This document shows, one piece after another, positions 40,812 through 61,815 of a stretch of DNA of 64,000 nt (position 1 is its first letter; every line of letters starts with the position of its first letter). The notes beneath the pieces are model-generated. The model made no database searches. It saw nothing but the letters and a program-made list of their open reading frames with translations, and was not told the DNA's origin. A program made the position numbers and the translations under genes. This DNA is from Methanobacteriota archaeon (GTDB taxonomy: Archaea; Thermoplasmatota; Thermoplasmata; SG8-5; JACRNV01): NCBI GenBank assembly GCA_016214785.1, contig JACRNV010000056.1, positions 6,843-70,842 of the forward strand, in the 5' to 3' direction.

Positions 40812-40834
40812 TTAGAGAATAAAAATGTAATATT

Positions 40835-43839: not shown

Positions 43840-43852
43840 GTTTTTTTCGCAA

Positions 43853-46528: not shown

Positions 46529-47794
46529 TTACTTTTCCGCCTCCAGCAGCCACTTCCAGAGCGGCACGGACCGTACGCCCGCCTCCCCCGCTTCCTCGTC
46601 CCGCGTTATCACCAGGCCATCGCCTATCCCGAGATCGCCCATGCAGCGCGACAGGCCGCGGAACTCCCTCTTGCGGGCGTCCGGGTCCGCGAGGTCGAAG
46701 CACACCTGCACCGCCAGCGTCTTCCTGCCGCGGCCCAGGACGAAGTCCACCTCGTAGCCGGCCCTGTCCTTCCAGTAATGGAAGGTCGCGCCGCGCCGAG
46801 CGAGCTCGGCTGCGACAACTGTCTCGTAAAGATGCCCCTCCCCGACATTGCCGATCACGCTCGCCAGGCCCGCGTCATAGCAGTAGACCTTGCGGGGGTA
46901 CTGGAGCCGGTCCCTGATGCGGGTCGAAAATATCGTGACGTCGAACAGCAGGAACGCGTCCCTGAGGTGGCCGAAGTACCGAATCAGCGTCGGGACCGAG
47001 ATCGGCGCCCCGATGCTCTTGAAATATCTGGACATCTTGCCGAAGGATAGGAGGTTCCCGGAGTTCGAGACGAGGTAGTCCGAGAGCTCCGAGAGCGTGG
47101 CCGCCCCCCGCACTTTCGCCAGGACGTCCCGGGCGACCGAGTCCGCGTAGAGATGGGCCAGCATCTCCTCCTTCAGTTCGGACAGCACGACCTCCGGGTA
47201 GCCGCCGTGCCTGAGGTATTGCTCCAGCGCGCCCTTCACGAGCGCCCTGGCCCGCTCGGTCTTTGGGGACTTTTCGATTCCCACGAACCCGAGGTACTCG
47301 CGGAACGACAGCGGCAGGACGACCGTCGTCAGATGCCGCCCGGCCAGCAGCTTGGCGACGTCGGGCCTCATGAGCCGGGCGGTGGACCCGGACACGGTGG
47401 TCTTGACCCGCCCCTTGAACTCGTCCTGGATGCTCCGAACATAGCGTTCCCAATCCGGAACTCTCTGCACCTCATCCAGGAACAGGTAAACCCTGCCGTG
47501 CCTCTCCAGCAGGCGTTCTGCATGGATGACCTCGACGAGGTCGTTGAACATTGAGCCTTGGACCGGCGCGAGCTTCCTGTTCTCGAAGTTCAGATAGATG
47601 GTCGCTTCCTTCGGGACATGTTCCAGCAACTGGCTTATCGCATGAAACATCAGGTAAGTCTTCCCCGCTCTCCTCGGGCCCACGATGTCATTAATCAGGT
47701 CGCTATCAAGCTGCGTCTCGACCTCCCGCGCCCTGACTTCGGGAAGCTGGCTTTCCCAGTATTCCCTGACCGCGCTGTCGATCTTTGAATTCAT
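46529..47794 (-). CDS. AAA+ ATPase of the COG1373 / DUF4143 family (paralog 2)
   Basis: Walker A (GPRRAGKT), Walker B (LFLDEVQ). Collinear with 27457..28698. Confidence 0.85.
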   Translation of the reverse strand: MNSKIDSAVREYWESQLPEVRAREVETQLDSDLINDIVGPRRAGKTYLMFHAISQLLEHVPKEATIYLNFENRKLAPVQGSMFNDLVEVIHAERLLERHGRVYLFLDEVQRVPDWERYVRSIQDEFKGRVKTTVSGSTARLMRPDVAKLLAGRHLTTVVLPLSFREYLGFVGIEKSPKTERARALVKGALEQYLRHGGYPEVVLSELKEEMLAHLYADSVARDVLAKVRGAATLSELSDYLVSNSGNLLSFGKMSRYFKSIGAPISVPTLIRYFGHLRDAFLLFDVTIFSTRIRDRLQYPRKVYCYDAGLASVIGNVGEGHLYETVVAAELARRGATFHYWKDRAGYEVDFVLGRGRKTLAVQVCFDLADPDARKREFRGLSRCMGDLGIGDGLVITRDEEAGEAGVRSVPLWKWLLEAEK

Positions 47795-48047: not shown

Positions 48048-49625
48048 GTGCAACAGATGCCGGATTTTCTCAAGGAGATGACGGACGACGCGCTCAAGGC
48101 CATGGCCGCGAGGGCCGGGGCGAGGCCCGAGGACGTTCCCTCCCGCGAAGCCGCGCTCGCGGTCATAGCGGAGTCGGTCAAAAAGAGGCTCGAATCGCTC
48201 AGCGCGGCCGAACTGAGGGAGAAGCTCGCGGAGTGCGACGTCCAGGCCCCGAAGGGCAAGAAGAGGAAGGACCTGATAGACGCTCTCGTCTCGGACGAGG
48301 CGGGCTTCTGCATGGCCGTGGGCGAGTACTTCCCCGCAGACGATCTCGTGGGCATCGAGGCCGACCTCAAGGACATTGGCAAGGACATCCAGAGGACCGT
48401 CGTGGATGTCAGGGCGGCGGGCCTGCTGTTCGATGAGGAGCTCGCCGCGATAAGGAGCGCCCTGGCCCAGCGCGCGGGCCAGCCGGCGAGCCTCAGGGCC
48501 GCCGACGAGGCAGCGAACATGGCCATGACGCAGCTCAACCAGGGGGACATGGACGGCGGGATGGCGTCGCTGTCGCAGGCCATGGCGCTCGCGGACCGCT
48601 CCGTCGCCGACTTCCAGGGCGCGATGCTCGCCCGGGCGCTGCTGGCGGCCATGGACACCGTGGCCTTCTGCAAGATGGCGGAATCGAACTCGGGGGAGAC
48701 CGAGAAGGAGCTCCACGACGCGCTGCGCGCCCACAGGGGCGGGCTCCCGGCGGCGAGGGACAGGGCCGTTGCGCTTTTAGATAAATGCGTTAAGATTTAC
48801 AGGGAGGAGCTCGTGGCCCTCCAATCGGTTTTGCAGACGAAGCAGATATTTGTCCAGAACATGAAGGCCCAGGGGGTCGACGTGTTCAACGCCGAGCGGT
48901 TCCTGAGGCGCGCCTCGGACGCCCTTGGCCAGAAGTCGTGCAGGGACGCCACGGAATACCTGGCGAGGGCCGAGCGCTCGGCCGTGGAGAGCAGGCAGGG
49001 GTGGCTCGAGCAGGTGCGCGGCCGGCTCCCGCAGGTCGAGGCCACGGTGCAGGAGGCGAAGGGCCTCGGCGCCGACGTCGGCGAGGCCGAGCGCCTGATA
49101 GAGCAGGCCAAGGTCGCGCTGGAGAGCAGCGACTATTCGCTCTGCGCCGAGCTCGTCAAGCGCGGCGAGCAGAGGGCCATCGAGGCCCAGCGCATGCAGG
49201 TCCAGAAGGCCGAGGAGCTGCGCAGGAGGCAGCTGCAGGCCGCGCAGGAGAGCCTCGTCACCTCGACCCAGTCGGTGACGGAGGCGAGGGCCTTCAACAT
49301 AGAGGGCTGGCAGGCATTGGACATGAAGGTAAGGGAGGCGCAGGAGGCGCTGATGCGCAGCGACGCCTTCGGCGCCACCACGGCCGCGAAGGAGGCCGGC
49401 GACCTCGCCCGCCAGATGCAGCAGGCCATAGAAGAGGGCAGGAAGGGCGCGGACGCATTGCAAGTCCAGTACACGGGCCCGTGCCCGAGGTGCAACCAGA
49501 TGGCCGTGAAGGCGCTGCAGACGGGCTTCGGCCGGTGCGCGTCGTGCGGGTTCGTCTACCCGTTCCAGTTCCAGCAGCAGCCGCAGAGGCAGGAGAAGCG
49601 CGGCTTCGGCATATTCAAGAGGTGA
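48048..49625 (+). CDS. Coiled-coil protein with C-terminal zinc ribbon (525 aa)
   Basis: Long Ala/Glu/Arg/Gln-rich heptad regions; C-terminal …CPRCNQMAV…CASCGF…; TATA-like acatttattta upstream. Confidence 0.7.
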   Translation: MQQMPDFLKEMTDDALKAMAARAGARPEDVPSREAALAVIAESVKKRLESLSAAELREKLAECDVQAPKGKKRKDLIDALVSDEAGFCMAVGEYFPADDLVGIEADLKDIGKDIQRTVVDVRAAGLLFDEELAAIRSALAQRAGQPASLRAADEAANMAMTQLNQGDMDGGMASLSQAMALADRSVADFQGAMLARALLAAMDTVAFCKMAESNSGETEKELHDALRAHRGGLPAARDRAVALLDKCVKIYREELVALQSVLQTKQIFVQNMKAQGVDVFNAERFLRRASDALGQKSCRDATEYLARAERSAVESRQGWLEQVRGRLPQVEATVQEAKGLGADVGEAERLIEQAKVALESSDYSLCAELVKRGEQRAIEAQRMQVQKAEELRRRQLQAAQESLVTSTQSVTEARAFNIEGWQALDMKVREAQEALMRSDAFGATTAAKEAGDLARQMQQAIEEGRKGADALQVQYTGPCPRCNQMAVKALQTGFGRCASCGFVYPFQFQQQPQRQEKRGFGIFKR

Positions 49626-49628
49626 GGG

Positions 49629-50549
49629 ATGAGACAGCGTCCTGTCAGGGACATCGATATCAAGGGCGGCATGACCGTCGCGGCCCTCGTCGGCCAGTTC
49701 GCGGAGGCGGGAGGCTTCACGGCGACGAAGTTCGCCGACGCAGTGGACATCACGAAGAAAATGCTCAAGGACAAGGATTGCGTTAAATTCCTCTCGTTCC
49801 CCGCGTGCATCAACGCCACGGGAACGCGCGGCGTCATAGCCAAGATGCTCAGGGAGCGCATGGCCGACGTCGTAATAACGACCTGCGGCACGGTAGACCA
49901 CGACCTCGCGCGCTCCTGGAAGGACTACTACCACGGCTCGTTCGAGATGGACGACGCCGGCCTCAGGGACAGGGGCGTCAACAGGCTCGGGAACGTCCTC
50001 GTGCCGAACGACAGCTACGGCACTATAATCGAGCAGAAGGTCCAGCCCTTCCTGCAGCAGATGTGGGACTCTGGCAAGAAGCGCATCGGGACGAAGGAGC
50101 TGCTCTGGAAGGTCGGCGAGATGTGCAAGGAGGACTCCATCCTCTACTGGGCGCAGAGGAACAAGATTCCCGTCTACGTGCCCGGCATAACCGACGGCTC
50201 GTTCGGCGCGCAGCTGTGGCTCTTCTCGCAGGAGCACAGGGAGCTGTGCATCGACCTCATGCAGGACGAGCGCGAGCTTGCGGACATAGTATTCCCGGCG
50301 CGGAAGACGGGCGCGCTCATCATCGGCGGCGGCATCTCCAAGCACCACACCATCTGGTGGAACCAGTTCAAGGAGGGGCTGGACTACGCCGTATACATAT
50401 CGACCGCCGCCGAGCACGACGGCTCTCTTTCAGGCGCCAGGACAAGGGAGGCGGTCTCGTGGGGGAAGATAGGCCGGAGGGCCAGGCACGTCACCGTGGA
50501 CGGCGACGCCACGATACTCCTTCCGCTGCTCGTGGCAGCCCTGAAGTGA
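49629..50549 (+). CDS. dys: Deoxyhypusine synthase
   Basis: …GGGISKHHTIWWNQF…DYAVYISTAAEHDGSLSGARTREAVSWGKI… (NAD/spermidine-site motifs of deoxyhypusine synthase). Confidence 0.92.
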   Translation: MRQRPVRDIDIKGGMTVAALVGQFAEAGGFTATKFADAVDITKKMLKDKDCVKFLSFPACINATGTRGVIAKMLRERMADVVITTCGTVDHDLARSWKDYYHGSFEMDDAGLRDRGVNRLGNVLVPNDSYGTIIEQKVQPFLQQMWDSGKKRIGTKELLWKVGEMCKEDSILYWAQRNKIPVYVPGITDGSFGAQLWLFSQEHRELCIDLMQDERELADIVFPARKTGALIIGGGISKHHTIWWNQFKEGLDYAVYISTAAEHDGSLSGARTREAVSWGKIGRRARHVTVDGDATILLPLLVAALK

Positions 50550-50609
50550 GCAATTTCACAATCTTCCGCCGCAACGTATTTAACCCCTCCCGCCAATCAA
50601 TCCGGCAAG

Positions 50610-51137
50610 GTGGGCATAGTGGGCGATCGTTCTTGCACCTGCGCCAGATGCGGCAAGGAAGTCGAGGGGGAAGGCCTGTGCGGCGAGTGCGCCGCACAGC
50701 CTGAGGCCAGCCCGCAGAAGAAGATATCCGACCTCATCGAGTGCGCGAAGAAGGAGATTGAGCGCGGGAAGAGGAAGGGCGTGGCCCTTGGGAACGCCGA
50801 GGAGCTTCTTGAGGGCGTGATGCTGATGCTCGAGGCCGAGAACGCCGACGACGCCCTCAGGCTCCTGAACGAGTGCCTGGAGTTCGCCTCGGAGCGCATC
50901 ATGCAGCACGAGATGCTCGTGGCGGGCATCAAGCGCGCGGAGATGAGGATAAAGGAGGCGGAGGAGCGCGGGCTGGACACGACGGAGGCCGCCACGCTCC
51001 TTAAGATGGCGCAGGGCGCGCTCGACAGCGCCGAGTACAGGGAGGGCATAGACTACGCGCGGAAGGGCGCGGAGGCGGCCCAGAAGGGGAGGAAGAAGGA
51101 CGTTCGGGTAGAGGTCGCGGCCTGGCAGAGGGAGTGA
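50610..51137 (+). CDS. Small zinc-ribbon + coiled-coil protein (175 aa, GTG start)
   Basis: N-terminal CTCARCGKEVEGEGLCGEC ribbon, then a charged helical region. Confidence 0.55.
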   Translation: MGIVGDRSCTCARCGKEVEGEGLCGECAAQPEASPQKKISDLIECAKKEIERGKRKGVALGNAEELLEGVMLMLEAENADDALRLLNECLEFASERIMQHEMLVAGIKRAEMRIKEAEERGLDTTEAATLLKMAQGALDSAEYREGIDYARKGAEAAQKGRKKDVRVEVAAWQRE

Positions 51138-51200
51138 GCGCCCGGGGCCAGCGTCGATACGGCATGATTAGATTTTTATGCTATGGCGTTTATGTAGCGG

Positions 51201-54200
51201 ATGGTGCCATTGTTGGAATGCCTCTCATGCGGCAAGGCCACTCCCCCGCGCGTTTTGCTGTGCCCCGATTGCTGCGACTCCAGGGCCGCCAGCGACGCCC
51301 TCTGGTTCGCCGACCCCGACCTCCCGGGCGCCGGGGGGATTTCAAGGGCGTCGGGATGCAACACGCTCGTCCTCAGGGACGGCGCCGCCGCGCCGGAGAT
51401 TCTCGTAGCCGATAGCTCGGGGCGCTTCGAGGCGCCGAGGGACCTGAACTCAAGAGATCTCGAATCGGGGAAGTGGCAGAGCACGGCCCGGGCGGCCGTG
51501 TCCCTGGCCGCGATACCGGCAGTCATCCCGGACAAGGGCGCGGTCCATGTGGAGGCCGGCGACCACGCATGGCTGGAGCGCAGCCTGGGCTCGGCCATCA
51601 GGGATGGCCCGGGCGACGCCGAGAGGATAGACCCGCTCCTCGCGTGCAGGCTGGCCGCGCTCACGTGGCATTCCAGGGTCTCGCAGACCATAGTCCCCGC
51701 CCTGGGCGATGACTGGGTGGCGAGGTTCGACTCGGCCGCCGCGCGGCGCACGCTCGCGTGGCTCGACCTCGCGCTGAAGGCCAAGCCGTCGTGCCGCGAG
51801 GCCCTCAGGAGCAAGGGCGCTGTCCTGGGGATGCTCGGCAGGGAGGCCGCGGCCGCGGCGGTGTTCGAGCTGCTGTCGAAGGTCGAGGAGGACAGCGCCG
51901 ACGTCTGGCAGAAGCGCGGCAGGGCGCTGGCCAGCACCGGCGGCCAGGTCGACGCCCTGAGGTGCTTCGAGCGCGCCCTGGCGATGAGCAGGGACGACCC
52001 ATCGCTGTGGGGCGACAAGGGCGACTCGCTGGCCGCGCTCGGCAGGCACCGCGAGGCCGTGCGCTGCTACGACCGCGCGCTGGAGCTCTCGCCCGGCGAC
52101 CGCGCGCTCTCCGAAAAGAAGGCCGACGCCCTCACCCGCCTGGGGGACATAGAGCAGGCCGTCTCAATCTACGACAGCGTCAAGAGGCCATCGGTGCCGA
52201 GGAAGGCGCCGGATGCCCAGCCACAGAGGCCGGCCTGGCCCGCAGCGCCTAAGGAAGGCCCGCCGCGGGAGAAGATGGGCCGCGCCGAAATGCCCGCTCC
52301 GGCTCCAGAGCCCGCGAGGCCCGCAACGGAGGCGCGCCCCGGGCCATCATTCCCCGTCCCACAAGAAGTGCCGAAGCCCGCCGCGCCATTGATGGCCGAG
52401 GCGCCCGCGCCAGCTCCCATCGAGCAGCCAAAGCCGGCTGCGCCGGAGAGGAGGGCTCCGCCGCCATCGTTCTTCAGCCAGATGAAGGAAGCGGCTGGCA
52501 AGATAGAGCCCGAGAGAGAAGAGAGGGACGTCACCCCCGTTCCAATTTACCAGGCGCCGTTCATGGACCAACCGGCCCCGCCGCCGAGGAAGGAGCCGGC
52601 CGCGATACCGGAGGAAGAGGCGCTCCCCGGGTCGGACATGGCAGAGCCCCCGAGAAAGGACTCGCCCCTCGCGAAGGAGCAAGCCCTGGAGCGCAGGCTC
52701 GAGGCCGAGAAGGCCCTCCCGCCGGACAGGGAGAAAGCCCTGCCACCGATGAAGGAGGATCTCGACCGCCTCGACCGGGAGATAGACGAGCTCCTGCCCG
52801 AGGAGGCCGAGCCCAGGGAGAAGCCGCTGCCCGGGAAGCCGCTGGACGAGACCTTCCCCGAGGAGGCCGAGCCCGCGGCATCGAAGATAGAGAGGGAGCT
52901 GGACGGCTTCCTGCCGCAAGGGCCCGGCAAGCGAGCGGCCAAACGACCAACAAGGGACGCCGAGGCCGAGAGGATAGAGGACGACATCGACAACGTCATG
53001 CTCCCCTCGCAGGAGGTGGAGGATCTCTTCGACAAGGCCGAGGGCCTGCTCGACGAAGGCGAGTACGAGGCCGCGCTCTTCGCCTACGAGGCCGTGCTGC
53101 ACAAGGAGCCGAGGAACAACGACGCAATCGCGGGCAGGGCCGACTCCTTGGCCGGCATGGGCCGGACCGGCGAGGCCTTGAAGCTTCTCAACGAGGCGCT
53201 GTCCGGCGGCCCGGACAACATCGTACTCCTGGAAGCGAGGGGCGATGTCGAGATGCGCGCGGGCAATTACCGGGAAGCGCTCGATGACTACAACGCCTGC
53301 ATATCCACTGACCGCACGGACGAGATAATATGGGTGAAGAGGGGCGAGGCGGCGCTGAGGCTCAAGTCCTTCGACGACGCCCTCGCGTCGTTCAATCGGG
53401 CCGTGGAACTCGACCCCCAGGACCACATAGCGTGGATAGGCGTCGGCGACGCGCTCGTCGCGCTCGGCAAGGCGGACGAGGGGTACAAGTGCTACGACAA
53501 GGCCGTGGAGCTCGACGCGAACAGCGCCATCGCCTGGTACAAGAAGGGGCTCGTCCTCGACGATAAGGGGAGGTGGGGCGGCGCGCTCCAGTTCTACGAC
53601 AAGGCCATCGCCATCGACCCGCAGCTCGCCCCCGCGAGGCTCAAGGTCGCCAACATCTACATCTCCAACAACAGGTACGACCTCGCCATCAAGGCCTGCG
53701 ACGCGGCCCTGGCCGCCGACCCGCTGAGCGCGGAGTTCATGGTGCTGAAGGCCCGGGCGCTGAAGCTCATGGGCCGCTGGGGCGCGGCGATACAGGCGCT
53801 GGACGACATGGAGAGCGCCATCAAAGGCAACCCGCAGGCCCAGGTCCTTCGCGGCGAGCTGCTGATGGAGAAGGGGGAGCCCGATGCGGCGATGGAGTGC
53901 TTCGACCGCGCCCTGGCCAAGGACCAGGACAACGTGGACGCGCTCGTGCACAAGGGGCGGCTCCTCTACCAGAACGGCGGCTTCAACGAGTCCATCAAGC
54001 ATTTCAAGCGGGCGTCGCAGGCCGACCCCACTTCGGTCGAGGCGTGGCGCGGCCTCGCCGACTCGTTTAAAGACGTCAATGACGAGCAGAAGGCCCTCGA
54101 CGCCTACGACAAGGCGCTGGGGCTCGCGCCCACCGACGCCAAGCTGTGGCTGGCCAAGGGCATAGCATTGCAGGAGTTCGAGAAGTTCAGGGAAGCGATG

Positions 54201-54302
54201 AAGGCGTACGACAAGGCCCTGGGCCTCGACCCGAGGCTCGAGGAGGCGCGGCGCTGGAGGGAGCGGTGCGCCAAGCGCATAGATGAAGGGGGCGGGGCCT
54301 GA
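51201..54302 (+). CDS. 1,033-aa protein: N-terminal zinc ribbon, Pro/Glu-rich disordered linker, C-terminal array of ≥12 TPR repeats
   Basis: CLSCGK…CPDCC ribbon; ~300-aa PxxP/E-rich linker; TPR consensus (W-LG-Y, A-F-A-P) repeated from ~aa 590 to the end. Its stop overlaps the next ATG (TGATG at 54300-54304). Confidence 0.8.
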   Translation: MVPLLECLSCGKATPPRVLLCPDCCDSRAASDALWFADPDLPGAGGISRASGCNTLVLRDGAAAPEILVADSSGRFEAPRDLNSRDLESGKWQSTARAAVSLAAIPAVIPDKGAVHVEAGDHAWLERSLGSAIRDGPGDAERIDPLLACRLAALTWHSRVSQTIVPALGDDWVARFDSAAARRTLAWLDLALKAKPSCREALRSKGAVLGMLGREAAAAAVFELLSKVEEDSADVWQKRGRALASTGGQVDALRCFERALAMSRDDPSLWGDKGDSLAALGRHREAVRCYDRALELSPGDRALSEKKADALTRLGDIEQAVSIYDSVKRPSVPRKAPDAQPQRPAWPAAPKEGPPREKMGRAEMPAPAPEPARPATEARPGPSFPVPQEVPKPAAPLMAEAPAPAPIEQPKPAAPERRAPPPSFFSQMKEAAGKIEPEREERDVTPVPIYQAPFMDQPAPPPRKEPAAIPEEEALPGSDMAEPPRKDSPLAKEQALERRLEAEKALPPDREKALPPMKEDLDRLDREIDELLPEEAEPREKPLPGKPLDETFPEEAEPAASKIERELDGFLPQGPGKRAAKRPTRDAEAERIEDDIDNVMLPSQEVEDLFDKAEGLLDEGEYEAALFAYEAVLHKEPRNNDAIAGRADSLAGMGRTGEALKLLNEALSGGPDNIVLLEARGDVEMRAGNYREALDDYNACISTDRTDEIIWVKRGEAALRLKSFDDALASFNRAVELDPQDHIAWIGVGDALVALGKADEGYKCYDKAVELDANSAIAWYKKGLVLDDKGRWGGALQFYDKAIAIDPQLAPARLKVANIYISNNRYDLAIKACDAALAADPLSAEFMVLKARALKLMGRWGAAIQALDDMESAIKGNPQAQVLRGELLMEKGEPDAAMECFDRALAKDQDNVDALVHKGRLLYQNGGFNESIKHFKRASQADPTSVEAWRGLADSFKDVNDEQKALDAYDKALGLAPTDAKLWLAKGIALQEFEKFREAMKAYDKALGLDPRLEEARRWRERCAKRIDEGGGA

Positions 54303-57300
54303 TGTCCAGCGCCGAGCGGCTCCTTGGCAGCCTGCGCGACCTGTCCGACCCGGAGTTCCGGGAGGTCCTCACGAAGCTGCTGAAGGGAATGGGGCTGAGC
54401 GCCAGGAACGTCCGCACCGTCGGCCCGGGGCTGGAGATAGAGGCCGTCCTGGACAGCAACTACGATGCGTACTTCGTCCTCGCGAGCCGCGCGCAGTCGC
54501 AGGCCAGGCCCGAGGAGCTGCAGAAGGGCGTCGAGCGCATGCGCTCCATGGGCATCAGGAAGGGCATTTTCTTTTTACCGGGCGGGGCGACGAAGGAAGC
54601 CCAGGAGTACGCCTCGCAGTTCGACGTCTCGGTCGCCGGCATGGACGACATGTCGGCCCTGCTGGACAAGTTCGATCTCTCCGGGGACGTCGAGCGCAAG
54701 GCGTCGAAGCGCTTCCTGGAGCGCGAGGGGGACAGGTACCTCCCGAGCATCGACAAGCTCGAGACCTCGATGAAGTGGGGGAACGACTTCTACGCCTCCG
54801 GCAACTACCGGAAAGCCATAGACTACTTCGAGCAGGCTGCGGCGCTGAAGCCCAGCTACGACCTGGCCTGGCTGATGCTCGGCAACTGCCACCACGCGCT
54901 CGGAGATTACGACAAGGCAGCCGAGGCTTTCGAGGGCGCGCTCGAGCGCAACCCCGAGAGCGAGGAGGCGTGGTTCGACCTCGGAAACACCCTGTACTTC
55001 CTGGGCAGGCACGACGACGAGCTCGCCTGCTACGACAAGGCCATCGCGCTCAACAAGTCCTACGACAGGCCGTGGAACAACAAGGGCGCGACGCTGCTCG
55101 AGCTGGGGAAGTTCGAGGAGGCCGTCCTGTGCTTCGACAAGGGCCTGAAGGTTGACCCGAAGAACGAGAAGGCGCTGAACAACCGCGGCGTGGCGCTGAA
55201 GAAGCTCGGCAGGATGCGCGACGCGATCGAATCGTTCGACCGGGCGCTCGCCATCGCCCCCGACTATCCGGACGCCATGCTGAACAAGGGCCTGGCCCTG
55301 CAGGAGATGGGCGAATACCTCGCGGCGGTCAAAGCGTACGACGAGGTCCTGGCTAGGGCGAAGTCCGCCGAGCTCTACTGCCAGAAGGCGACGGCGCTCA
55401 TGGCCGCCGAGAGGCATCTGGCGGCCATCGAGTCCGTCGATGCCGCGCTCATCCTCAGGCCCGGCTGGGACGTCGCATTGGATTTGAAGAAGAAGGCCAA
55501 GAGGGCGCTCGACAGGCAGTCGAAGCTCCGGAAGGGCGGGGAGCCCGAAGAACCCCCGAAGCCGACTGAAATTGTCAAGCCGGTGCCAATCACAATGCCG
55601 AAGCCCGTGGAAGCCCCCGAGCCTGAGGTCGCCGCGCCCAAGGTCGAAGAGCCGAAGCTTCCACCGCCGCTCGTCCCTCGAACCGAGATAGGCGGGCCGG
55701 CGGTCGTCGGGTCTCCGCAACCTGTGGAAGCGGTAGAGCCCGCCGGAGCGCCCGTTGCGAAGGCCGAGGGCTCCCCGATTGCGCCGAAGCCAGAGGCGCC
55801 ATGCGCGTCCTGCGGCAAGATGGCCCCGGCCGGCTCGAAGTTCTGCCCCCACTGCGGCGAGCCCATGGCCAGGGAGGGGTTCGTGTGCTCGGACTGCGGC
55901 GCGGAGGTGCTGGAGAGCTACAGGCACTGCCCGTCGTGCGGGGCGGCGCTCGATGAGGGCGAGGAAGAGGGGCTGACCGGGGGCGAGAGGGCCTTCGAGA
56001 AGGTCGAGGATGCGATAGCAAAGGAGCGGTTCGAAAGGACCGTCGACCACCTCTTCGCCGAGGGGGAGCTGAGAAGGCGCCTCGGGGACACCGAGGGCGC
56101 GCTCGACATGCTGCAGAAGGCCTCGGTGCAGATGGTCATACCGTTCGTGCAATCCGATGACCCGAAGGTCTACACCCACGTGGGGATGTGCAACATGGCC
56201 CTGGGCAGGCACGAGGACGCGCTCGAGGCATTCGAGCAGGCCCTGAACCGTGAGCCGGACAACATGCTGGCCATGCACGGCAGGATAGAGGCATTGACGT
56301 TGATGGAGCGGCACGCGTCGGCCAGCGACGCGCTCGACGAGCTGCTCGAATCGGGCGAGAGCGCGAGGCTCTGGCTCATGAAGGCCGACCTGATGGCGCG
56401 ATGGGGCAGGCACGCCCAGGAGGTCGAGGCGCTCGATCGCGCGGCCGAGCTCTCGGGAGAGATAGAGGACCTCTGGGACGTGGAGGGCATCGCCCTCGCG
56501 CTGGACGGCAAGGACGAGGACGCCCTCCTGTGCTTCGACCGCTCCGTGCAGGTCAACCCGGACTACTGGGAGGGGTGGAACAACAGGGGCGTGCTCCTAG
56601 TCGAGGCCGGGGACGTGCCGCTGGCGACGAAGTACGTAGACCGCGCCATCGACGTCGAGCCCGCGGCCTTCGAGGCCTGGGCGAACAGAGCGCACATCAT
56701 CGCTTCCGAGGGCCGCTTGGACGAGGCCGTGGAGTGCATGGAGGAGGCGCTGCTCCTGCGGAAGGCGTCGTGGGCGTGGGCGCAGAAGGGCATTTACCTT
56801 TTGAAGGGCGACCTGGTGGAAAAGGCCCTGGATGCGGCCGAGAGCGGCCTGAAGCTCGATGACAGGGACGCGGGCTGCTGGAACGTCTGCGGCCTCGCAT
56901 TGCTGAGGAAGGGGAGGCTCGCGGACGCCCTGGAGGCGTTCGAGAAGGCCGCGGCCATCGCGCCCGGATTCGAGGACGCGAAGCGCAACCTCGCGCTCGT
57001 CCGGGACAGGATTGAGGGGGACGGGCTGAAGTGCCCCAAATGCGGCGAGAGCGCGTCGCCGGGGGACAAGAGGTGCAGGAAGTGCGGCGGGCGGCTTGCG
57101 CGCGACGCCAGGGAGAACGCCCTGGCGAAGGAGATGGAGAGGGCCATCGCCGAGGACGTCGAGCCCGAGCAGAAGAAGGCGCAGAAGCCCAAGCGCAAGG
57201 AGAAGAGGGCGCCGTCGCGCGAGGAGTTCGTGTCCCTGCTGATGACCGTGCCCGGGATAGGCTACGCCAAGGCCAACGACCTGTGGGAGGCGGGCTTCAG

Positions 57301-57400
57301 GAGCGGGGACGACGTCGCGCGCGCGGACATGGCCATGCTGACGAGGGTGAGGGGCATCACGCCGCACCTGGCCAGGAAGATGAAGAAGGGGCTGGGGTAG
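54302..57400 (+). CDS. 1,032-aa multidomain protein: N-terminal Mrr-cat-like restriction-endonuclease-fold domain, TPR block, double zinc ribbon, second TPR block, zinc ribbon, C-terminal helix-hairpin-helix
   Basis: N-terminus …LTKLLKGMGL…VGPGLEIEAV…YFVLASRAQ…KGIFFLPGGATKEAQEYA…VAGMDDMSALL follows the Mrr_cat layout (the catalytic Lys position reads Arg). CASCGK…CPHCGE / CSDCGA…CPSCGA ribbons. CPKCGE…CRKCGG. …LLMTVPGIGYAKANDLWEAGF…LTRVRGITPHLARKM helix-hairpin-helix. Confidence 0.8.
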   Translation: MSSAERLLGSLRDLSDPEFREVLTKLLKGMGLSARNVRTVGPGLEIEAVLDSNYDAYFVLASRAQSQARPEELQKGVERMRSMGIRKGIFFLPGGATKEAQEYASQFDVSVAGMDDMSALLDKFDLSGDVERKASKRFLEREGDRYLPSIDKLETSMKWGNDFYASGNYRKAIDYFEQAAALKPSYDLAWLMLGNCHHALGDYDKAAEAFEGALERNPESEEAWFDLGNTLYFLGRHDDELACYDKAIALNKSYDRPWNNKGATLLELGKFEEAVLCFDKGLKVDPKNEKALNNRGVALKKLGRMRDAIESFDRALAIAPDYPDAMLNKGLALQEMGEYLAAVKAYDEVLARAKSAELYCQKATALMAAERHLAAIESVDAALILRPGWDVALDLKKKAKRALDRQSKLRKGGEPEEPPKPTEIVKPVPITMPKPVEAPEPEVAAPKVEEPKLPPPLVPRTEIGGPAVVGSPQPVEAVEPAGAPVAKAEGSPIAPKPEAPCASCGKMAPAGSKFCPHCGEPMAREGFVCSDCGAEVLESYRHCPSCGAALDEGEEEGLTGGERAFEKVEDAIAKERFERTVDHLFAEGELRRRLGDTEGALDMLQKASVQMVIPFVQSDDPKVYTHVGMCNMALGRHEDALEAFEQALNREPDNMLAMHGRIEALTLMERHASASDALDELLESGESARLWLMKADLMARWGRHAQEVEALDRAAELSGEIEDLWDVEGIALALDGKDEDALLCFDRSVQVNPDYWEGWNNRGVLLVEAGDVPLATKYVDRAIDVEPAAFEAWANRAHIIASEGRLDEAVECMEEALLLRKASWAWAQKGIYLLKGDLVEKALDAAESGLKLDDRDAGCWNVCGLALLRKGRLADALEAFEKAAAIAPGFEDAKRNLALVRDRIEGDGLKCPKCGESASPGDKRCRKCGGRLARDARENALAKEMERAIAEDVEPEQKKAQKPKRKEKRAPSREEFVSLLMTVPGIGYAKANDLWEAGFRSGDDVARADMAMLTRVRGITPHLARKMKKGLG

Positions 57401-57442
57401 CCATTACCGCACCCTTAAATCCTGCCGGTTGATTGTGGTCCG

Positions 57443-59146
57443 ATGCTCGAGCTTGGAGAGAGGCACTGGCTGGCCAAGGCCGCCACATGGGATTTTGGCG
57501 AGGCGAAAATAGAGCTGCCGAACGTCGCTTATTTTACGTCGCCCGGCGTCAAGCCGCCGGAGTATGCGGTGCTGACCTGCGGGCCCGGCGGCGCTCTGTC
57601 GCACTCCGGCTCGACGCTCTCTCCGGACGGACTGTACGAAGGCATGCTGCCGCCCTTCTCCCCCATGCCGCTCCTGCGCGAGGACGGCGCGGCGATAGAT
57701 GCGAAGGGGAGCGTTTGCCTCTTGCAAGGCAAGGGCTGGCCCGACGGCCCGCTGCCCGACGCGGAGCTTTATGTCCTAGTGAATGCCGCCGAGCTCTGGA
57801 AGCGCCCGCGCGAGCTTGCGCGGAGGCTCGCGCGCTTCAGCGACCTCGCGCCCTGCGAATCGGCGCTGTACGCTCCGGGCTGCGCGACGCCGGCGAACCT
57901 CGCGCTCCTTCTGTACTGCGGCGTGGGGCTCGTCGACGACACGCTCGCGCACGTCGCCGCCGCCTCGGGCATCTCGATGGGGCACGAGGGGAGCCTCCCG
58001 TCCGAGGAGAGCATGGACGACCTGCTCGCGCACAACCGGCGCGAGCTGCATTCGGAGTTGAAAAAGGCATTGCGCTACATGAAGATGGGCCGCCTGCGCG
58101 AGTACGCCGAGTACAAGGCCGGCGCCGGCCCGCTGTCGTGCGCGCTCCTGAGGCACGTGGACCTGCGCCACTACGGGAGCGTGGAGGCGCACGTCCCGCT
58201 CGAAGGGCCTAAGTTCAGGGCGAACACCAGGGCGTCGCTCACGAGGCCCGACGTCGTGCGCTGGCACGAGCGCATCATGGAGCGCTACAGGCCGCCCGAG
58301 GCGGCGAAAATACTACTCCTAATCCCGTGCTCGGCGAGGAAGCCCTACTCGCTCTCGCGCACCCACGCGCTCTTCCGCTCGGCAATCCAGAGGAGCGGCG
58401 CTGGTGGCGTCGTGCACGAGGTCATCGTAACGTCGCCGCTCGGGGCCGTGCCCAGGGAGCTGGAGTCGTTCTACCCCGCGCGCCACTACGACATCCCCGT
58501 AACCGGGGACTGGGACAGGGAGGAGCGGCACCGCGCTCTTGCTCTCGTCGAACACATCGTCAAAGTCGGCAGCTATTCTAAAATCGTCATGCACCTCGAC
58601 GTCGAGGCAGAGTTTTTCAGAGCGCTCGATGCCGACGCCTCGACGGGAGGAGAGGATGCCACGAGCGCGAAGTCCCTCGACGCGCTGGCAGCCGCCCTGA
58701 AGGAGGCTGCAAAAGGCCTTGAAAGGATTTCATCAAGGCAGAGAGAGGTCGCGGACCTTGCCGGCCTCGCGCGCTTCCAGTTCGGCGAGGCCGGCGATTC
58801 GCTCATGCGTGACTGCACAACGAGGATGGGCAGGGGGCATGTCCAGATTCTGAAGGGCGGCGAGCAGGTCGCGTCCTACCGCGAGGAGAGGGGGATGCTC
58901 TCCCTCGCGCCCGCCGGCGGGAAGATATTGGCGGAGTCGGGCGGGTACTGCGTTAAGATAGACGACTTCGAGCCAAAGGGGACTGTGTTCGTCGGCGGCG
59001 TCCTGGACGCGGACAAAGACATCAGGGCCGGCGACGACGTGGCCATCATGCATGGTACAGAAGTAAGGGCCGTCGGCGTCGCGCGGATGAGCGGGCCGGA
59101 GATGCTGCGCTGCAAGAGGGGCGAGGCCGTCAAGACGCGCAGGTAG
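57443..59146 (+). CDS. Archaeosine-synthase (ArcS)-like tRNA-modification protein with DUF5591-like middle region and C-terminal PUA domain
   Basis: …ILLLIPCSARKPYS…VIVTSPLGAVPREL… and PUA-like …GGYCVKIDDFEPKGTVFVGGVLDADKDIRAGDDVAIMH…. No obvious tRNA-guanine-transglycosylase zinc site was seen. Confidence 0.6.
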   Translation: MLELGERHWLAKAATWDFGEAKIELPNVAYFTSPGVKPPEYAVLTCGPGGALSHSGSTLSPDGLYEGMLPPFSPMPLLREDGAAIDAKGSVCLLQGKGWPDGPLPDAELYVLVNAAELWKRPRELARRLARFSDLAPCESALYAPGCATPANLALLLYCGVGLVDDTLAHVAAASGISMGHEGSLPSEESMDDLLAHNRRELHSELKKALRYMKMGRLREYAEYKAGAGPLSCALLRHVDLRHYGSVEAHVPLEGPKFRANTRASLTRPDVVRWHERIMERYRPPEAAKILLLIPCSARKPYSLSRTHALFRSAIQRSGAGGVVHEVIVTSPLGAVPRELESFYPARHYDIPVTGDWDREERHRALALVEHIVKVGSYSKIVMHLDVEAEFFRALDADASTGGEDATSAKSLDALAAALKEAAKGLERISSRQREVADLAGLARFQFGEAGDSLMRDCTTRMGRGHVQILKGGEQVASYREERGMLSLAPAGGKILAESGGYCVKIDDFEPKGTVFVGGVLDADKDIRAGDDVAIMHGTEVRAVGVARMSGPEMLRCKRGEAVKTRR

Positions 59147-59181
59147 ATGACGAAGGCGCTGAGAATACGCCGAAAGGATTT

Positions 59182-59227
59182 GAGCTACGCCTTACTTCAG
59201 TTCCTTCTCGAATAACTCCTTCGCGAA
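59182..59227 (-). repeat. Partial tandem duplicate of the last ~12 codons of the Rpo11 gene (…FAKELFEKELK*) located 40 nt downstream of the real stop
   Basis: gagctacgccttacttcagttccttctcgaataactccttcgcgaa matches gagctacttcaactccttctcaaaaagctcgcgcgcc (gene 3' end, 59263-59299). Confidence 0.5.
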
Positions 59228-59265
59228 CGACTTGAATGTTATTCCGTCGGAGTTCGCTTGGTGAG

Positions 59266-59541
59266 CTACTTCAACTCCTTCTCAAAAAGCTCGCGCGCCT
59301 CTTTGAACTGGTTGGACAGCGCCTTCAGGGAGCGCTTGAGCGCCGCCTGGGGCTTGCCGCTCTTGACCTCGATGTATATCCACGGCTTGTCCAGGTCCGG
59401 GTGGCCCAGGGAATACTTGGCCTCGGTCACGACATCGTCGAGCAGTAGCTGCGCGATGAGCGGCCTGAACAGTGTCTCGTCCAGGTCGGTGATTTGGACC
59501 CTGATGGAGTCCTTTTCCTTCTCCAGGAGCGTGAACTTCAA
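59266..59541 (-). CDS. rpoL: DNA-directed RNA polymerase subunit L (Rpo11)
   Basis: 91 aa; …LLEKEKDSIRVQITDLDETLFRPLIAQLL…YSLGHPDLDKPWIYIEV…PQAALKRSL… matches the Rpo11/RpoL dimerisation-domain pattern. Confidence 0.72.
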   Translation of the reverse strand: MKFTLLEKEKDSIRVQITDLDETLFRPLIAQLLLDDVVTEAKYSLGHPDLDKPWIYIEVKSGKPQAALKRSLKALSNQFKEARELFEKELK

Positions 59542-59593
59542 GGTATCGTCCTCGCCGGGTGGAAAGCGTCTCTGTTCATATATCTTGTCCCCT

Positions 59594-61312
59594 CTATGCC
59601 TGGGCCCCCCCGCCCATGGCGCTCTTGAAAGTCTCGATGTCTGCCTTGGCGTCCTTGAGCTTGGGCACCACTTCGGAGAACGCCCCCTTCCTCAGGTCTC
59701 CCTTTGCCTCCTTGAGCAGCTTGGACGCGCGTGCTACGTTCGCGCCTGAGAGCCTGAGCTCCTCGGCGGTGTTCTCGAGCGCCGAGAGCTCCTTGAGCAG
59801 CCTGACCTTCAGCGCGTCTGTCAGGGCCTTCTGGCCTTGCAGGATGTAGGTGACGGCCTTCTTGACCTCCTTCCTCGTGCCGTGCGCCACTGCCTCGGAG
59901 ATGAGCCTCTTGCCTTCCGTGACGTCGAGCTCGAGCTCCTTCGCAAGCCCGAGCATGGGCTTCAGCTCCGAAGCGACCGATGACAGGATTCTGTAAAGCT
60001 CTTTCTCGGAGATGTTGTCGAGGTCCTCTATCCTCACGGCCCCGGACGCCGCCTCCTCCTGCGGCTCGCCCTGCGCCGGCGTTTCCGCGGGCTCGGGCGC
60101 GGCCTCGGCCGGCTGCGCCCGTTCGGGCGTTGGCTGGGAGACCTCTTCCGAAATCGCGGTCTGAGCTGGCGCTTCCTCGGGCTGAGCGGGCGCTATACCC
60201 GGCTGCGCCGTTTCGGCGGGCGCGCCCTCGGCGGGGATCGTGAAATCCTTTCCGCAAACGGTGCACGATTTGCCGTCGGCCGTGAGGGGGCCGTTGCATA
60301 CCGTGCAGGCCCTCTCCTCGCCCAGCAGCTCCCTCTCGAAGGCCTTGACCTCCTCGGCCGACGCGCTCGGCACTATGTCCGGCGCCTCGCCGGTGCCGGT
60401 CTTCGGGAGCAGGTCCGTGACTCCCGCGGCGGATATGACGTGCTTGTAGCATTCGCCCGCGCTCTTGCTGTCCCCCATCCGCGTGAAGAGCCCGGCCATG
60501 GCGATCCATGCCGCGTCGTACTTGGGGTCGATCTCGGTGGCCATCTCGTAGGACTTGATTGCCTCGTCATTGCGTCCCATCTTCGCCAGCATGGAGCCGC
60601 GGGCGTACCAGAGGTCGGTGTTCTTGGTGTCCAGCTCAATCATGCGCTCGTAATGGGCCAGCGCCTTCTCCTCGCTCCCCTCCACTTTCGCGTTCTGGAA
60701 CTCCTTGCCGCACTCGAAGCACGAAGTCTCGAAGATGCTGAGGATCGTGCCGCAAATCGGGCAGGCCTGCTCGGCCTCTATGTCGTCGGCGCTGAGCCGC
60801 GTCTTGCGCAGCCCGTCGATGTCGGAAATCTGGAGCGCGCGCTTGATCGACGCCGCCGACCTCTTGCCGATGCCAGGAACGTTCATGAGCTGCTTCACGG
60901 ACGCGGCCTTGAGCTTGCCCAGGTCGGTGAACCCCGCCTCGTAAAGGGCTTTGGCCTTCAGGTTCCCCACGCCGGGCAGCTTGACGAGCTCCTTTATCTC
61001 CTCTGCCACGAGCTCGTCTATCTTCTGCATCGCGGCCTCCTCGTGGTCGGTCTCGTCGGCCCCTTCCTCCGGAGGGGTGGCCCGGGGCTCGGCCCGCTCG
61101 ATGGCCTCTGCCTGCTCCCCATCCTCCTGGAATTCGGCCCCGCAGCCCGGACACACCTTCGCGTTTGCCTCGACGAGCTTGCCGCACATCGGGCAGCCGA
61201 AGGTCTGGTCCTCGTCGCTTAGGACGGTCTTGCAGATGGGACAGAGCATCGCATCGCTGGGAATGTTGCTGCCGCAAACGGGACAACGCATGCTATTTCC
61301 TAAATACGGCAT
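59594..61312 (-). CDS. ~570-aa protein with multiple zinc ribbons, tandem helix-hairpin-helix motifs, TPR repeats, an Ala/Pro/Glu-rich linker and a C-terminal coiled coil
   Basis: Start MPYLGNSMRCPVCGS (alternative MRCP at 61291). CPVCGS…CPICKT, CPMCGK…CPGCGA, CPICGT…CFECGK, CTVCNG…CTVCGK. …LVKLPGVGNLKAKALYEAGF…LMNVPGIGKRSAASIKRAL helix-hairpin-helix. TPR (…WYARGSMLAKMGRNDEAIKSYEMATEIDPKYDAAW…). ORFs in other frames here are GC noise. Confidence 0.75.
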   Translation of the reverse strand: MPYLGNSMRCPVCGSNIPSDAMLCPICKTVLSDEDQTFGCPMCGKLVEANAKVCPGCGAEFQEDGEQAEAIERAEPRATPPEEGADETDHEEAAMQKIDELVAEEIKELVKLPGVGNLKAKALYEAGFTDLGKLKAASVKQLMNVPGIGKRSAASIKRALQISDIDGLRKTRLSADDIEAEQACPICGTILSIFETSCFECGKEFQNAKVEGSEEKALAHYERMIELDTKNTDLWYARGSMLAKMGRNDEAIKSYEMATEIDPKYDAAWIAMAGLFTRMGDSKSAGECYKHVISAAGVTDLLPKTGTGEAPDIVPSASAEEVKAFERELLGEERACTVCNGPLTADGKSCTVCGKDFTIPAEGAPAETAQPGIAPAQPEEAPAQTAISEEVSQPTPERAQPAEAAPEPAETPAQGEPQEEAASGAVRIEDLDNISEKELYRILSSVASELKPMLGLAKELELDVTEGKRLISEAVAHGTRKEVKKAVTYILQGQKALTDALKVRLLKELSALENTAEELRLSGANVARASKLLKEAKGDLRKGAFSEVVPKLKDAKADIETFKSAMGGGAQA

Positions 61313-61652: not shown

Positions 61653-61815
61653 TGGACCCATCGGGATTTGAACCCGAGGCCTCCTGCTGTTTTGGCTCCC
61701 CAACCCCAGTCCGGCGGAATTGGCGAGTGCCAAATCCTTTCCGTGGGGGTCAAGGGGGATTCCCGAGGGAATCCCCTTGCAAAGCAGGCGATCTTCCGGG
61801 CTGATCTATGGGCCC
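61653..61815 (-). tRNA. tRNA-Ala (anticodon TGC) with an 89-nt intron at the canonical 37/38 position (intron ≈ 61689..61777)
   Basis: Exons fold as GGGCCCA-TA-GATC-AGCCCGGAA-GATC-G-CCTGC-TTTGCA^A-GCAGG-AGGCC-TCGGG-TTCAAAT-CCCGA-TGGGTCC-A. The G3:U70 pair is the tRNA-Ala identity element. The intron contains the hairpin GGGGATTCCCTCGGGAATCCCC. A T-rich stretch (TTTTACTTTCT) follows the 3' end. Confidence 0.8.

Follow-up and report, generated by a model that had tools for sequence, protein, structure and literature searches.

Antiviral STAND proteins use TPR arrays as sensors, and in those of the Avs4 type an Mrr-like effector and an NTPase are combined with a TPR sensor. In modification-dependent restriction endonucleases of the Mrr and MspJI-AspBHI type (Mrr_cat, PF04471), the Mrr_cat domain is placed C-terminally, behind a winged-helix or SRA reader. 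FAN1/KIAA1018 consists of a zinc finger, a SAP domain, TPRs and a VRR_nuc nuclease domain of the PD-(D/E)xK fold (PMC1189080; PMC4201288). Distant multi-zinc-ribbon relatives of CdpC, the double zinc-ribbon membrane anchor of FtsZ1 in Haloferax volcanii, have been reported from all Thermoplasmatota classes (bioRxiv 10.64898/2026.07.16.738847). Here we describe a 13-kb region within a window of 64,000 nucleotides (the whole stretch of DNA that was analysed), which contains five genes, G1 to G5, with related parts in other arrangements. Two of them, G3 and G4, look like an undescribed pair: as the initial annotation had suspected, the combination was not found described in the searchable literature.

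Layout of the cluster and its modules

The five genes and their neighbours are arranged as follows:

48048-49625, + strand: G1, 525 aa (open reading frame and translation)
49629-50549, + strand: deoxyhypusine synthase (DHS), 3 nt 3' of G1 (Pfam DS, NCBIfam)
50610-51137, + strand: G2, 175 aa (open reading frame)
51201-54302, + strand: G3, 1033 aa (open reading frame and translation; TPR families, Pfam)
54302-57400, + strand: G4, 1032 aa (open reading frame and translation; Pfam)
57443-59146, + strand: ArcS-like gene (DUF5591, TGT_C2, PUA), a neighbour outside the G3-G4 module
59266-59541, - strand: Rpo11 (RNA polymerase subunit L), 3' of G5 (Pfam RNA_pol_L_2, 50.2 bits)
59594-61291, - strand: G5, 565 aa, counted from the MRCPVCG start

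NCBI places the start of G1 at the ATG at 48057, resulting in 522 aa. Since GC3 is 0.83-0.92 across G1-G5 (composition analysis), these are native coding frames, and A/T-rich TATA-like elements were seen, by eye only, 5' of G1, G2, G3 and ArcS. The flanking genes that had been named, DHS, ArcS-like and Rpo11, are confirmed by Pfam and NCBIfam matches: DHS scores 362 bits with Pfam DS and 446.8 bits against an NCBIfam cut-off of 350, and the ArcS-like protein, with 409.9 bits, lies slightly below the equivalog cut-off of 440. The shared parts are likewise present as annotated, with CxxC...CxxC zinc-ribbon motifs in all five proteins (motif scan; Pfam backs those of G4 and G5 only), TPR arrays in G3, G4 and G5, and tandem helix-hairpin-helix (HhH) motifs in two. 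The TPRs are tandem 34-residue helix-turn-helix repeats, which score 200-230 bits with TPR_1/TPR_2 in G3 and G4 and 46 bits with TPR_1 in G5. HHH_5 matches residues 978-1031 of G4 (36.4 bits) and residues 100-154 of G5 (47.9 bits), both above the cut-off of 27, and the two consecutive HhH motifs of each protein fit an (HhH)2 domain, predicted to bind double-stranded DNA non-specifically.

A single system made up of all five genes is not supported, since only G3 and G4 stay together (12/12 related loci), while G1 is tied separately to DHS. A lack of conserved linkage, which had been named among the findings that would speak against the cluster, applies in most loci to G1, G2 and G5 with respect to G3-G4, but not to the pair itself. 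Most likely, the 13-kb region consists of juxtaposed separate modules. G1, DHS, G2 and ArcS are missing from the 8-10 kb around G3-G4 in most lineages; the adjacency of ArcS and G4 is retained only in L015, a relative with 83-85% identity, and ArcS as a synteny anchor found nothing in species-representative genomes.

G1 is a helical-repeat protein with a C-terminal zinc ribbon and two possible N-terminal HeH/SAP-like motifs, and, like G2, it has no Pfam family. Its predicted structure is all-helical with a C-terminal three-strand ribbon (pLDDT 73.6); a comparison with PDB folds gave no match with E<0.3, the C-terminal ribbon alone resembling ribosomal zinc-ribbon proteins at E>0.3. Homologues with 24-31% identity adjoin DHS in three distant Thermoplasmata lineages (L007, L008 and L009), in two of which (L007 and L009) G1-DHS is close to Orc1/Cdc6 and FtsZ. 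G1 and DHS are a second, independently conserved pair that is not linked to G3-G4, and their linkage close to Orc1/Cdc6 draws attention to them as another conserved, uncharacterised unit. G2 joins an N-terminal zinc ribbon to the G1-type helical repeat, which occurs twice; G2 matches G1 (BLASTP, E 1e-4), the G1-like genes found in L007 and L009 (tblastn) and a 141-aa protein encoded upstream of the G1-like gene in L009 (BLASTP, E 4e-6). G5 carries, in this order, a double zinc ribbon, (HhH)2, a zinc ribbon, two to three TPRs, a further zinc ribbon, a Pro/Glu-rich linker and helical repeats of the G1/G2 type, with the following positions for its central domains:

60422-60673, - strand: G5 TPRs, two to three (Pfam TPR_1)
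60830-60994, - strand: G5 (HhH)2 (Pfam HHH_5)

A single close relative of G5 was found in the metagenome scan, in L015, with an identity of 83% for the best segment and of 78.5% when the whole tblastn alignment is counted. We regard G2 and G5 as lineage-specific relatives that draw on the same helical-repeat, zinc-ribbon and HhH modules, the evidence for conservation of G5 being limited to the genus level. The same parts also occur in unrelated proteins, such as a Band_7 protein with a DZR in the window and a giant KaiC-like protein with HhH and zinc ribbon in L002, indicating a lineage-wide toolkit. In L009, G3-like, G4-like, G2-like, G1-like and DHS genes lie inside 12 kb, so that a looser ancestral neighbourhood joining the modules is possible.

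The G3-G4 pair

The real unit of the region is the G3-G4 pair, which has the following features:

51201-51845, + strand: G3 N-domain, aa 1-215 (ribbon and ~190 aa)
51219-51272, + strand: G3 CxxC...CxxC ribbon, aa 7-24
52191-53000, + strand: G3 Pro/Glu/Ala/Lys-rich linker, aa about 331-600
54300-54304, + strand: overlap TGATG of the G3 stop and the G4 start (sequence read)
54335-54631, + strand: G4 Mrr_cat-type PD-(D/E)xK fold domain, aa 12-110
54485-54490, + strand: G4 S62-R63, degenerate active site
54734-54763, + strand: G4 signature linker R-[FY]-L-P-S-[IV]-D-x-L-E, aa 145-154, joining the Mrr domain to the first TPR
55802-55942, + strand: G4 double zinc ribbon, aa 501-547 (Pfam DZR, Zn_Ribbon_1, CxxC motifs)
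57032-57394, + strand: G4 C-terminal module of zinc ribbon (aa 911-928), Lys-rich linker and (HhH)2 (aa 978-1031; Pfam Zn_ribbon_3, HHH_5)

Both products exceed 1,000 aa and the genes are translationally coupled through the TGATG overlap, as had been read from the sequence, with a G-rich Shine-Dalgarno-like run 5' of the overlap within the C-terminal codons of G3. A G3-like gene is located directly 5' of a G4-like gene in all 12 related loci, at identities from ~60% down to ~25%, and the stop/start junction measures -4, -1, 0 or +2 nt in 11 of them, so the pair is conserved in Thermoplasmatota archaea. HhH motifs are carried by G4 in the window and in most loci, but in L009 and L019 they are found on the G3-like protein; in L019, G4 is furthermore divided into two overlapping genes. 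Migration of HhH between the partners and the splitting of G4 are the pattern expected for subunits of one complex. From coupling and domain migration, both of them indirect evidence, we infer that G3 and G4 form a complex, whose DNA binding and cellular role are likewise putative.

The neighbours of the pair are housekeeping genes that vary between lineages, including IleRS (L005, L006), gyrB, rhomboid, ELP3 (L014, L017), fibrillarin (L009, L019), a D-Tyr-tRNA deacylase overlapping the G4 stop (L013), LysRS and GluRS together with a small Arf/Ras/Roc-type GTPase 33 nt downstream (L012), a divergent FtsZ/tubulin-like gene directly upstream (L011), and a PRC-barrel gene and Cdc48 directly downstream (L014, L017, L018). 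GC3 values of 0.89-0.92 agree with those of native genes.

G4 is built from the Mrr-fold domain, the signature linker, TPR array 1, a Pro-rich linker, the double zinc ribbon, TPR array 2, a zinc ribbon, a basic linker and (HhH)2, and this full-length architecture is common to P0020, P0022, P0025, P0029, P0030 and P0037. The C-terminal module of zinc ribbon, linker and (HhH)2 recurs in the first five, whereas P0037 ends in SAP and HhH, and P0135, another orthologue, in a SAP-like motif only. In one subclade (L014, L017; P0040, P0046) HhH or SAP is not recognisable on either partner, so that DNA binding is perhaps not universal. Among 24 members the only invariant columns are L147, P148 and S149, and the signature linker persists even in the Mrr-less homologue of L009. 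With the G4 N-terminus, a word-indexed protein search found one homologue and a profile eight, and an index-free search was used for more; the PDB sequence search with the N-terminal profile matched designed TPR proteins only, because the query extended into the first TPR.

The N-terminal domain of G4 was correctly assigned to the Mrr fold, since residues 12-110 match Pfam Mrr_cat with 35.5 bits (E 1.2e-8; cut-off 21), and the domain has the alpha/beta core of the PD-(D/E)xK fold as found in the Mrr subfamily. Pfam detects no Mrr_N winged helix or SRA reader domain in G4, where Mrr_cat begins at residue 12. Aligned with the canonical Mrr references P0007 and P0008 (GIDG...IQAKRW), the active-site positions of G4 read E47...L60-A-S62-R63, compared with the canonical D...QxK-R. 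The claim that the catalytic Lys reads Arg is therefore off by one: Ser62 occupies the Lys position, and Arg63 aligns with the Arg that in canonical Mrr (QAKRW) is conserved directly after the Lys. The active site has eroded further than the initial annotation had assumed. A complete D...(Q/E)xK triad is found in 0/29 family members; the Q/E column is retained in two and the Lys in seven, while one acidic active-site residue is kept in 21 and Arg63 is near-invariant. Judged from these alignments, the Mrr module is catalytically degenerate and probably only binds, which agrees with the degenerate nuclease module proposed before, although the retained acidic residue and Arg63 leave an unconventional activity conceivable. 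One homologue has already been annotated by NCBI as a restriction endonuclease.

In G3, a zinc ribbon and a novel helical N-domain are followed by TPR array 1, a Pro-rich disordered linker and TPR array 2. The ~190 aa of the N-domain beyond the ribbon have no Pfam match at E<=10; by alignments (A3, A8, A10) the N-domain is the conserved core of the G3 family, and hhalign relates the long G3 forms to the 267-aa short forms of L014 and L017 with a probability of 98% (E 2.2e-13). The linker is probably disordered, its richest 80-aa window consisting of P/E/A/K/Q to 75% and of Pro to 30%, and homologues carry acidic or other linkers in place of the Pro-rich one.

Possible roles of the pair

We consider it somewhat probable that G3-G4 is a non-catalytic DNA-binding TPR scaffold, amid juxtaposed separate modules. 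One transcript with coupled translation would yield the two ~1000-aa proteins, which would assemble as a heteromeric cytoplasmic TPR scaffold. The C-terminal (HhH)2 and the dead Mrr-fold domain of G4 may contact double-stranded DNA without sequence specificity, while in both subunits TPR arrays and zinc ribbons may hold protein partners. Chromosome organisation, or the tethering of DNA to another cellular machine, is a candidate role. Being generic, TPR, zinc-ribbon and HhH modules do not point to any particular cellular process.

More specifically, the scaffold could be an adaptor, formed by G3-G4 and perhaps G1, that would link the chromosome to the FtsZ-based division apparatus of Thermoplasmatota, its zinc ribbons or TPRs attaching to FtsZ or to partners of FtsZ. 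The FtsZ/tubulin-like gene of L011, the PRC-barrel and Cdc48 genes of L014, L017 and L018, the GTPase 33 nt downstream in L012 and the proximity of G1-DHS to Orc1/Cdc6 and FtsZ in L007 and L009 are consistent with it, as is the function of PRC-barrel proteins in archaeal division. Furthermore, some Thermoplasmata have FtsZ without SepF and PRC-barrel proteins (PMC11188069), and a zinc ribbon of Haloferax CdpC binds FtsZ1 (bioRxiv 10.64898/2026.07.16.738847). However, every such association is confined to one subclade, the neighbours at most loci are unrelated, and in the window no FtsZ, SepF or PRC-barrel gene is near the pair, which places the adaptor on the unlikely side. We regard as unlikely that G3-G4, possibly with the origin-proximal G1 family, constitute a Thermoplasmatota-specific chromosome-tethering or division scaffold, in which the dead Mrr fold and (HhH)2 would grip DNA, TPRs and zinc ribbons would engage FtsZ-like, PRC-barrel and small-GTPase partners, and the pair would stand in for SepF/PRC components absent from some Thermoplasmata. 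ArcS in the window, IleRS, ELP3, D-Tyr-tRNA deacylase, LysRS/GluRS and fibrillarin as near neighbours elsewhere, and the tie of G1 to deoxyhypusine synthase could instead point to a scaffold that organises such neighbouring enzymes of translation or tRNA modification and whose HhH and zinc ribbons would contact RNA. Yet ~12 of ~60 listed neighbours are translation-related, which is similar to the estimated background share in a compact archaeal genome, so that no enrichment can be claimed; since, in addition, no single enzyme recurs across lineages and HhH2, SAP and the Mrr fold serve chiefly to bind DNA, this role is quite improbable.

A defence system similar to Avs or Type IV restriction, with G4 uniting a TPR sensor and an effector nuclease of the Mrr type and G3 as partner or regulator, is very improbable, even though only ~3 kb separate the cluster from a low-GC island that has DUF4143 ATPases on its flanks. 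The active-site triad is incomplete in every family member, no Walker A motif ([AG]xxxxGK[ST]) or NTPase domain was detected in G1-G5 (Pfam, NCBIfam, motif scan), the genes have native composition, and the synteny of the pair survives deep divergence, unlike that of typical defence genes. As the initial annotation had remarked, there is no obvious defence island: mostly housekeeping neighbours surround the pair in all related loci examined, and PADLOC yields weak generic TPR and PrimPol-TPR matches only. Hardly any chance is left for a fortuitous cluster of functionally unrelated TPR/zinc-ribbon proteins in which even G3 and G4 are unlinked. These genomes contain many fusions of TPR, zinc ribbon and HhH, and G1, G2 and G5 lack conserved linkage to the pair in most loci, but for G3-G4 the synteny largely refutes such a reading, given adjacency in 12/12 loci with a conserved stop/start overlap. 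The family-specific signature linker of G4, the G3-specific N-domain and the migration of domains between the partners also speak against chance, as does the local enrichment of zinc-ribbon genes (5/8 in the cluster, 2/34 in the rest of the window; Fisher p = 0.0012, post hoc).

If the non-catalytic DNA-binding scaffold is the true reading, a restriction-endonuclease fold has lost its catalytic residues and been recruited permanently into a conserved two-subunit scaffold. The pair would then be a concrete candidate for a machine, specific to this lineage, that organises or tethers DNA in a large, mostly uncultivated archaeal phylum in which hardly anything has been learnt about chromosomes and division. 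Such a reading also guards against labelling such giant proteins as restriction endonucleases or defence genes.

Comparison with described systems

Compared with the Mrr and MspJI-AspBHI enzymes, G4 carries the domain at the N-terminus of a ~1000-aa TPR protein, the triad is present in none of the 29 members, and a defence context is missing. McrBC/CoCoNuT Type IV systems were rejected, since the McrB GTPase and McrC nuclease families are absent from the genes at 44-64 kb and from the related loci, and so was Avs membership, as the STAND/AAA+ NTPase with Walker A is missing and no defence-protein model or island was found. Unlike Avs4, G3-G4 has a degenerate active site and no STAND NTPase or Walker A, and its context is housekeeping and vertically conserved. 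At the level of the fold, with 11-15% identity, G4 is similar to inactivated PD-(D/E)xK domains, such as the N-terminal (jaw) domain of Rpb5 and the N-domains of COG1395 and COG4127, but eukaryotic Rpb5 is an RNA polymerase subunit without TPR, HhH or zinc ribbon. With CdpC the pair shares zinc ribbons spaced by a long disordered linker, whereas CdpC has 346 aa and no TPR, Mrr or HhH, and the comparison, made by published description, is a lead only. As in FAN1, a zinc finger, a small DNA-binding module, TPRs and a PD-(D/E)xK fold are found on one polypeptide, G4 (PMC1189080; PMC4201288). In G4, however, the domains run in the opposite order, the nuclease fold standing at the N-terminus; its subfamily is Mrr_cat, with no match to the C-terminal, catalytically intact VRR_nuc domain of FAN1-like nucleases, and it has lost the active site. 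Most members have HhH where FAN1 has SAP, and an obligate partner gene lies upstream; the homology shown between FAN1 and G4 stays within the shared superfamilies.

Gene content of the 48.0-61.3 kb region

The window is archaeal, with Thermoplasmatota MAGs as its closest relatives. The five look-alike genes, G1 to G5, are arranged with their neighbours as follows:

48048-49625, + strand: G1; zinc-ribbon motif, no Pfam family
49629-50549, + strand: deoxyhypusine synthase (DHS)
50610-51137, + strand: G2; zinc-ribbon motif, no Pfam family
51201-54302, + strand: G3; zinc-ribbon motif, strong TPR matches
54302-57400, + strand: G4; zinc-ribbon motif, Mrr_cat, strong TPR matches, HHH_5
57443-59146, + strand: ArcS-like gene
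59266-59541, - strand: Rpo11
59594-61291, - strand: G5; zinc-ribbon motif, strong TPR matches, HHH_5

The genes of this region have a GC3 of 0.83-0.92, indicating true frames and native genes. The zinc-ribbon, TPR and helix-hairpin-helix (HhH) parts described in the initial annotation were borne out by motif scan and Pfam, in that CxxC…CxxC zinc-ribbon motifs are present in all five genes, TPR matches are strong in G3, G4 and G5, and HHH_5 domains exceed the threshold in G4 and G5. The Pfam search matched no family in G1 or G2. Zinc-ribbon genes make up five of the eight genes here, versus two of 34 in the remainder of the window (p = 0.0012 in a post hoc Fisher test).

Related loci were collected from a species-representative genome scan, an index-free profile search (1.84 billion representatives) and the contigs encoding matches. 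They do not bear out the idea that the five genes form a single system, since most of them keep only the G3-G4 pair: G1, DHS, G2 and ArcS are missing within 8-10 kb of it in L002, L004-L006, L011, L012, L014 and L017, where its neighbours include IleRS, gyrB, rhomboid and ELP3. G1 is a separate matter from the pair; its homologues (24-31% identity) adjoin DHS in three distant lineages, in the vicinity of Orc1/Cdc6, S15, a DHH protein and FtsZ. G2 is a short protein related to the helical repeat of G1. G5 joins a zinc-ribbon/HhH module, also present at the C-terminal end of G4, to TPRs and a G1/G2-type helical repeat; one close relative of G5 was found, which is 78-83% identical and shares the gene order G4-ArcS-Rpo11-G5. 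The zinc-ribbon, HhH and repeat parts are a lineage-wide toolkit, since they also turn up in unrelated proteins encoded by these genomes (Band_7 with DZR in the window, KaiC-like with HhH and zinc ribbon in L002, and a transmembrane protein with repeat and DZR in L009). In L009, genes for G3-like, G4-like, G2-like and G1-like proteins and DHS lie inside 12 kb, and on this gene order a loose ancestral neighbourhood of the G3-G4, G2, G1 and DHS modules is conceivable.

Elsewhere in the window, a low-GC island of a dozen genes (31400-45000; GC 0.31-0.41 versus 0.60-0.68 elsewhere, GC3 about 0.25-0.4) is probably a surface-glycosylation or polysaccharide cluster gained by horizontal transfer; two paralogous AAA_14/DUF4143 ATPase genes (27457-28698, +; 46529-47794, -) lie at some distance on either side of it. 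A HepT-like RNase (26688-27035) follows a small overlapping ORF, the two (26269-27035, +) probably being an MNT/HepT toxin-antitoxin. At 16603-18750 (-) a 371-aa multi-zinc-ribbon protein (16603-17718) adjoins a protein in which SPFH/Band_7 is joined to a double zinc ribbon; by description the 371-aa protein is of the kind lately proposed to be distantly related to CdpC in Thermoplasmatota (bioRxiv 10.64898/2026.07.16.738847). The window also encodes two ~1000-aa Kelch-repeat proteins in tandem (4221-10419, +), a 1222-aa protein without a family in the Pfam search (21796-25464, -), and a tRNA gene with a long intron (61653-61815, -; Rfam match 48 bits, not called by ARAGORN).

Conservation of the coupled G3-G4 pair

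G3 and G4 form a conserved, translationally coupled gene pair. The coupling noted initially is read directly in the sequence as a TGATG overlap, and a G3-like gene stands directly upstream of a G4-like gene in all 12 loci with upstream sequence, with a stop/start spacing of -4, -1, 0 or +2 nt in 11 of them. The G4 family is small but real, because about 40 representatives (index-free profile search, 50% clustering) share the Mrr domain and the linker between it and the first TPR, at the N-terminus of proteins of 440-1468 aa. The linker R[FY]LPS[IV]DxLE serves as the family signature, and its L, P and S are the sole invariant columns of a 24-sequence alignment. In G3, the N-domain forms the conserved core: a zinc ribbon followed by about 190 residues for which the Pfam search gave no match. 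One subclade has this domain alone (267 aa), and it aligns with the long forms at an hhalign probability of 98% (E 2.2e-13).

In most lineages it is G4 that carries the HhH domain, but in L009 and L019 its G3-like partner does; the L009 G4 homologue retains the linker without the Mrr domain, and L019 has G4 divided between two overlapping genes. Such movement of modules between two always-adjacent genes is as expected for subunits of one complex. Orthologues end in (HhH)2 or SAP-like modules, and sequence composition indicates long disordered linkers. In four short members of the G4 family (P0027, P0031, P0032 and P0033; 440-574 aa) a conserved C-terminal Cys cluster, C-x-G-[ED]-[FY]-x(3-5)-D-x-G-C-x-x-C-x(5)-C, replaces the second TPR array and HhH; P0038 has seven Ig-like repeats mid-protein instead.

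Further neighbours of the pair are PRC-barrel, Cdc48, FtsZ-like, small GTPase, D-Tyr-tRNA deacylase and fibrillarin genes and a KaiC-like giant protein, and no third partner recurs across lineages in the related loci examined. Directly adjoining the pair, each in a different subclade, are a divergent 311-aa FtsZ/tubulin-like gene (L011, 3787-4722), an Arf/Ras/Roc-type small GTPase (L012, 11537-12391), and PRC-barrel genes with Cdc48 (L014, 10283-10525; L017, 13164-13409). Just upstream of it in the closest MAG relative (L002, 2610-7010) is a 1466-aa protein with a KaiC/RadA-like ATPase, (HhH)2, zinc ribbons, a GxINGxxN repeat, a transmembrane segment and a large extracellular region.

The Mrr-fold domain of G4

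G4 begins with an Mrr fold whose active site is eroded. The fold, named initially as a point open to refutation, was upheld: residues 12-110 match Pfam Mrr_cat (35.5 bits, cut-off 21), and a confident structure model built on the 24-sequence family alignment (pLDDT 91.3) superposes on Mrr-type nucleases, with MspJI as best Foldseek match (E 4e-5), followed by EcoT38I, AF1548 and AspBHI. The model can likewise be superposed with the N-domain of eukaryotic Rpb5, which shares this fold but is not catalytic. Inactive PD-(D/E)xK copies are documented in other proteins (PMC1189080).

When the family was aligned with P0007 and P0008, two canonical Mrr proteins (GIDG…IQAKRW) that its profile had retrieved, the active site of the window G4 read E47…L60-A-S62-R63. 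The catalytic Lys position, initially given as Arg, is thus actually Ser, the Arg being the conserved residue directly after the Lys. Among 29 family members the first acid is retained in 21, the Lys in seven and the Q/E column in two, and none has the full triad. The family has thus not kept the catalytic site, which argues for a non-catalytic role of the domain. P0001, the homologue nearest to the N-terminal part of G4, is labelled "restriction endonuclease, partial" at NCBI, which is probably misleading given the loss of the triad.

Possible roles and known systems

On the most likely reading, G3 and G4, built entirely from known domain types, would assemble into a heteromeric TPR scaffold that would grip DNA non-specifically via its HhH2 tail and dead nuclease domain, while TPR arrays and zinc ribbons would hold protein partners; as a proposal for the cellular process, chromosome organisation or tethering is our best guess. 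Scattered neighbours of the FtsZ-like, PRC-barrel, Cdc48 and GTPase kinds suggest a link to division or segregation, as do recent work in which FtsZ1 of Haloferax is bound by a zinc ribbon (bioRxiv 10.64898/2026.07.16.738847) and the lack of SepF and PRC proteins in some Thermoplasmata (PMC11188069); however, every such neighbour is restricted to one subclade. A scaffold for translation enzymes is not supported, since translation genes account for ~20% of the pair's neighbours, roughly the background share as we estimate it.

Several features speak against a defence system: the triad is lost, there is no NTPase (no Walker A motif in any of G1-G5 by motif scan), the gene context is housekeeping and the synteny of the pair is deep. 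The initial remark that the genes lie in no obvious defence island stands: PADLOC found nothing specific, and L002, L004-L006, L011, L012, L014 and L017 are not defence islands. The combination had also not been recognised as a described system, and literature searches gave no published description of the G3-G4 pair; what is new is a conserved, undescribed pair with an inactivated restriction-endonuclease domain.

Compared with Mrr enzymes, the G4 domain has the fold but differs in catalytic residues and architecture. The architecture of G4 is reminiscent of FAN1 (zinc finger, SAP, TPR, PD-(D/E)xK), although it lacks the active nuclease that defines FAN1, and of Avs4, which combines an Mrr-like effector with TPRs, but without the NTPase of Avs4.
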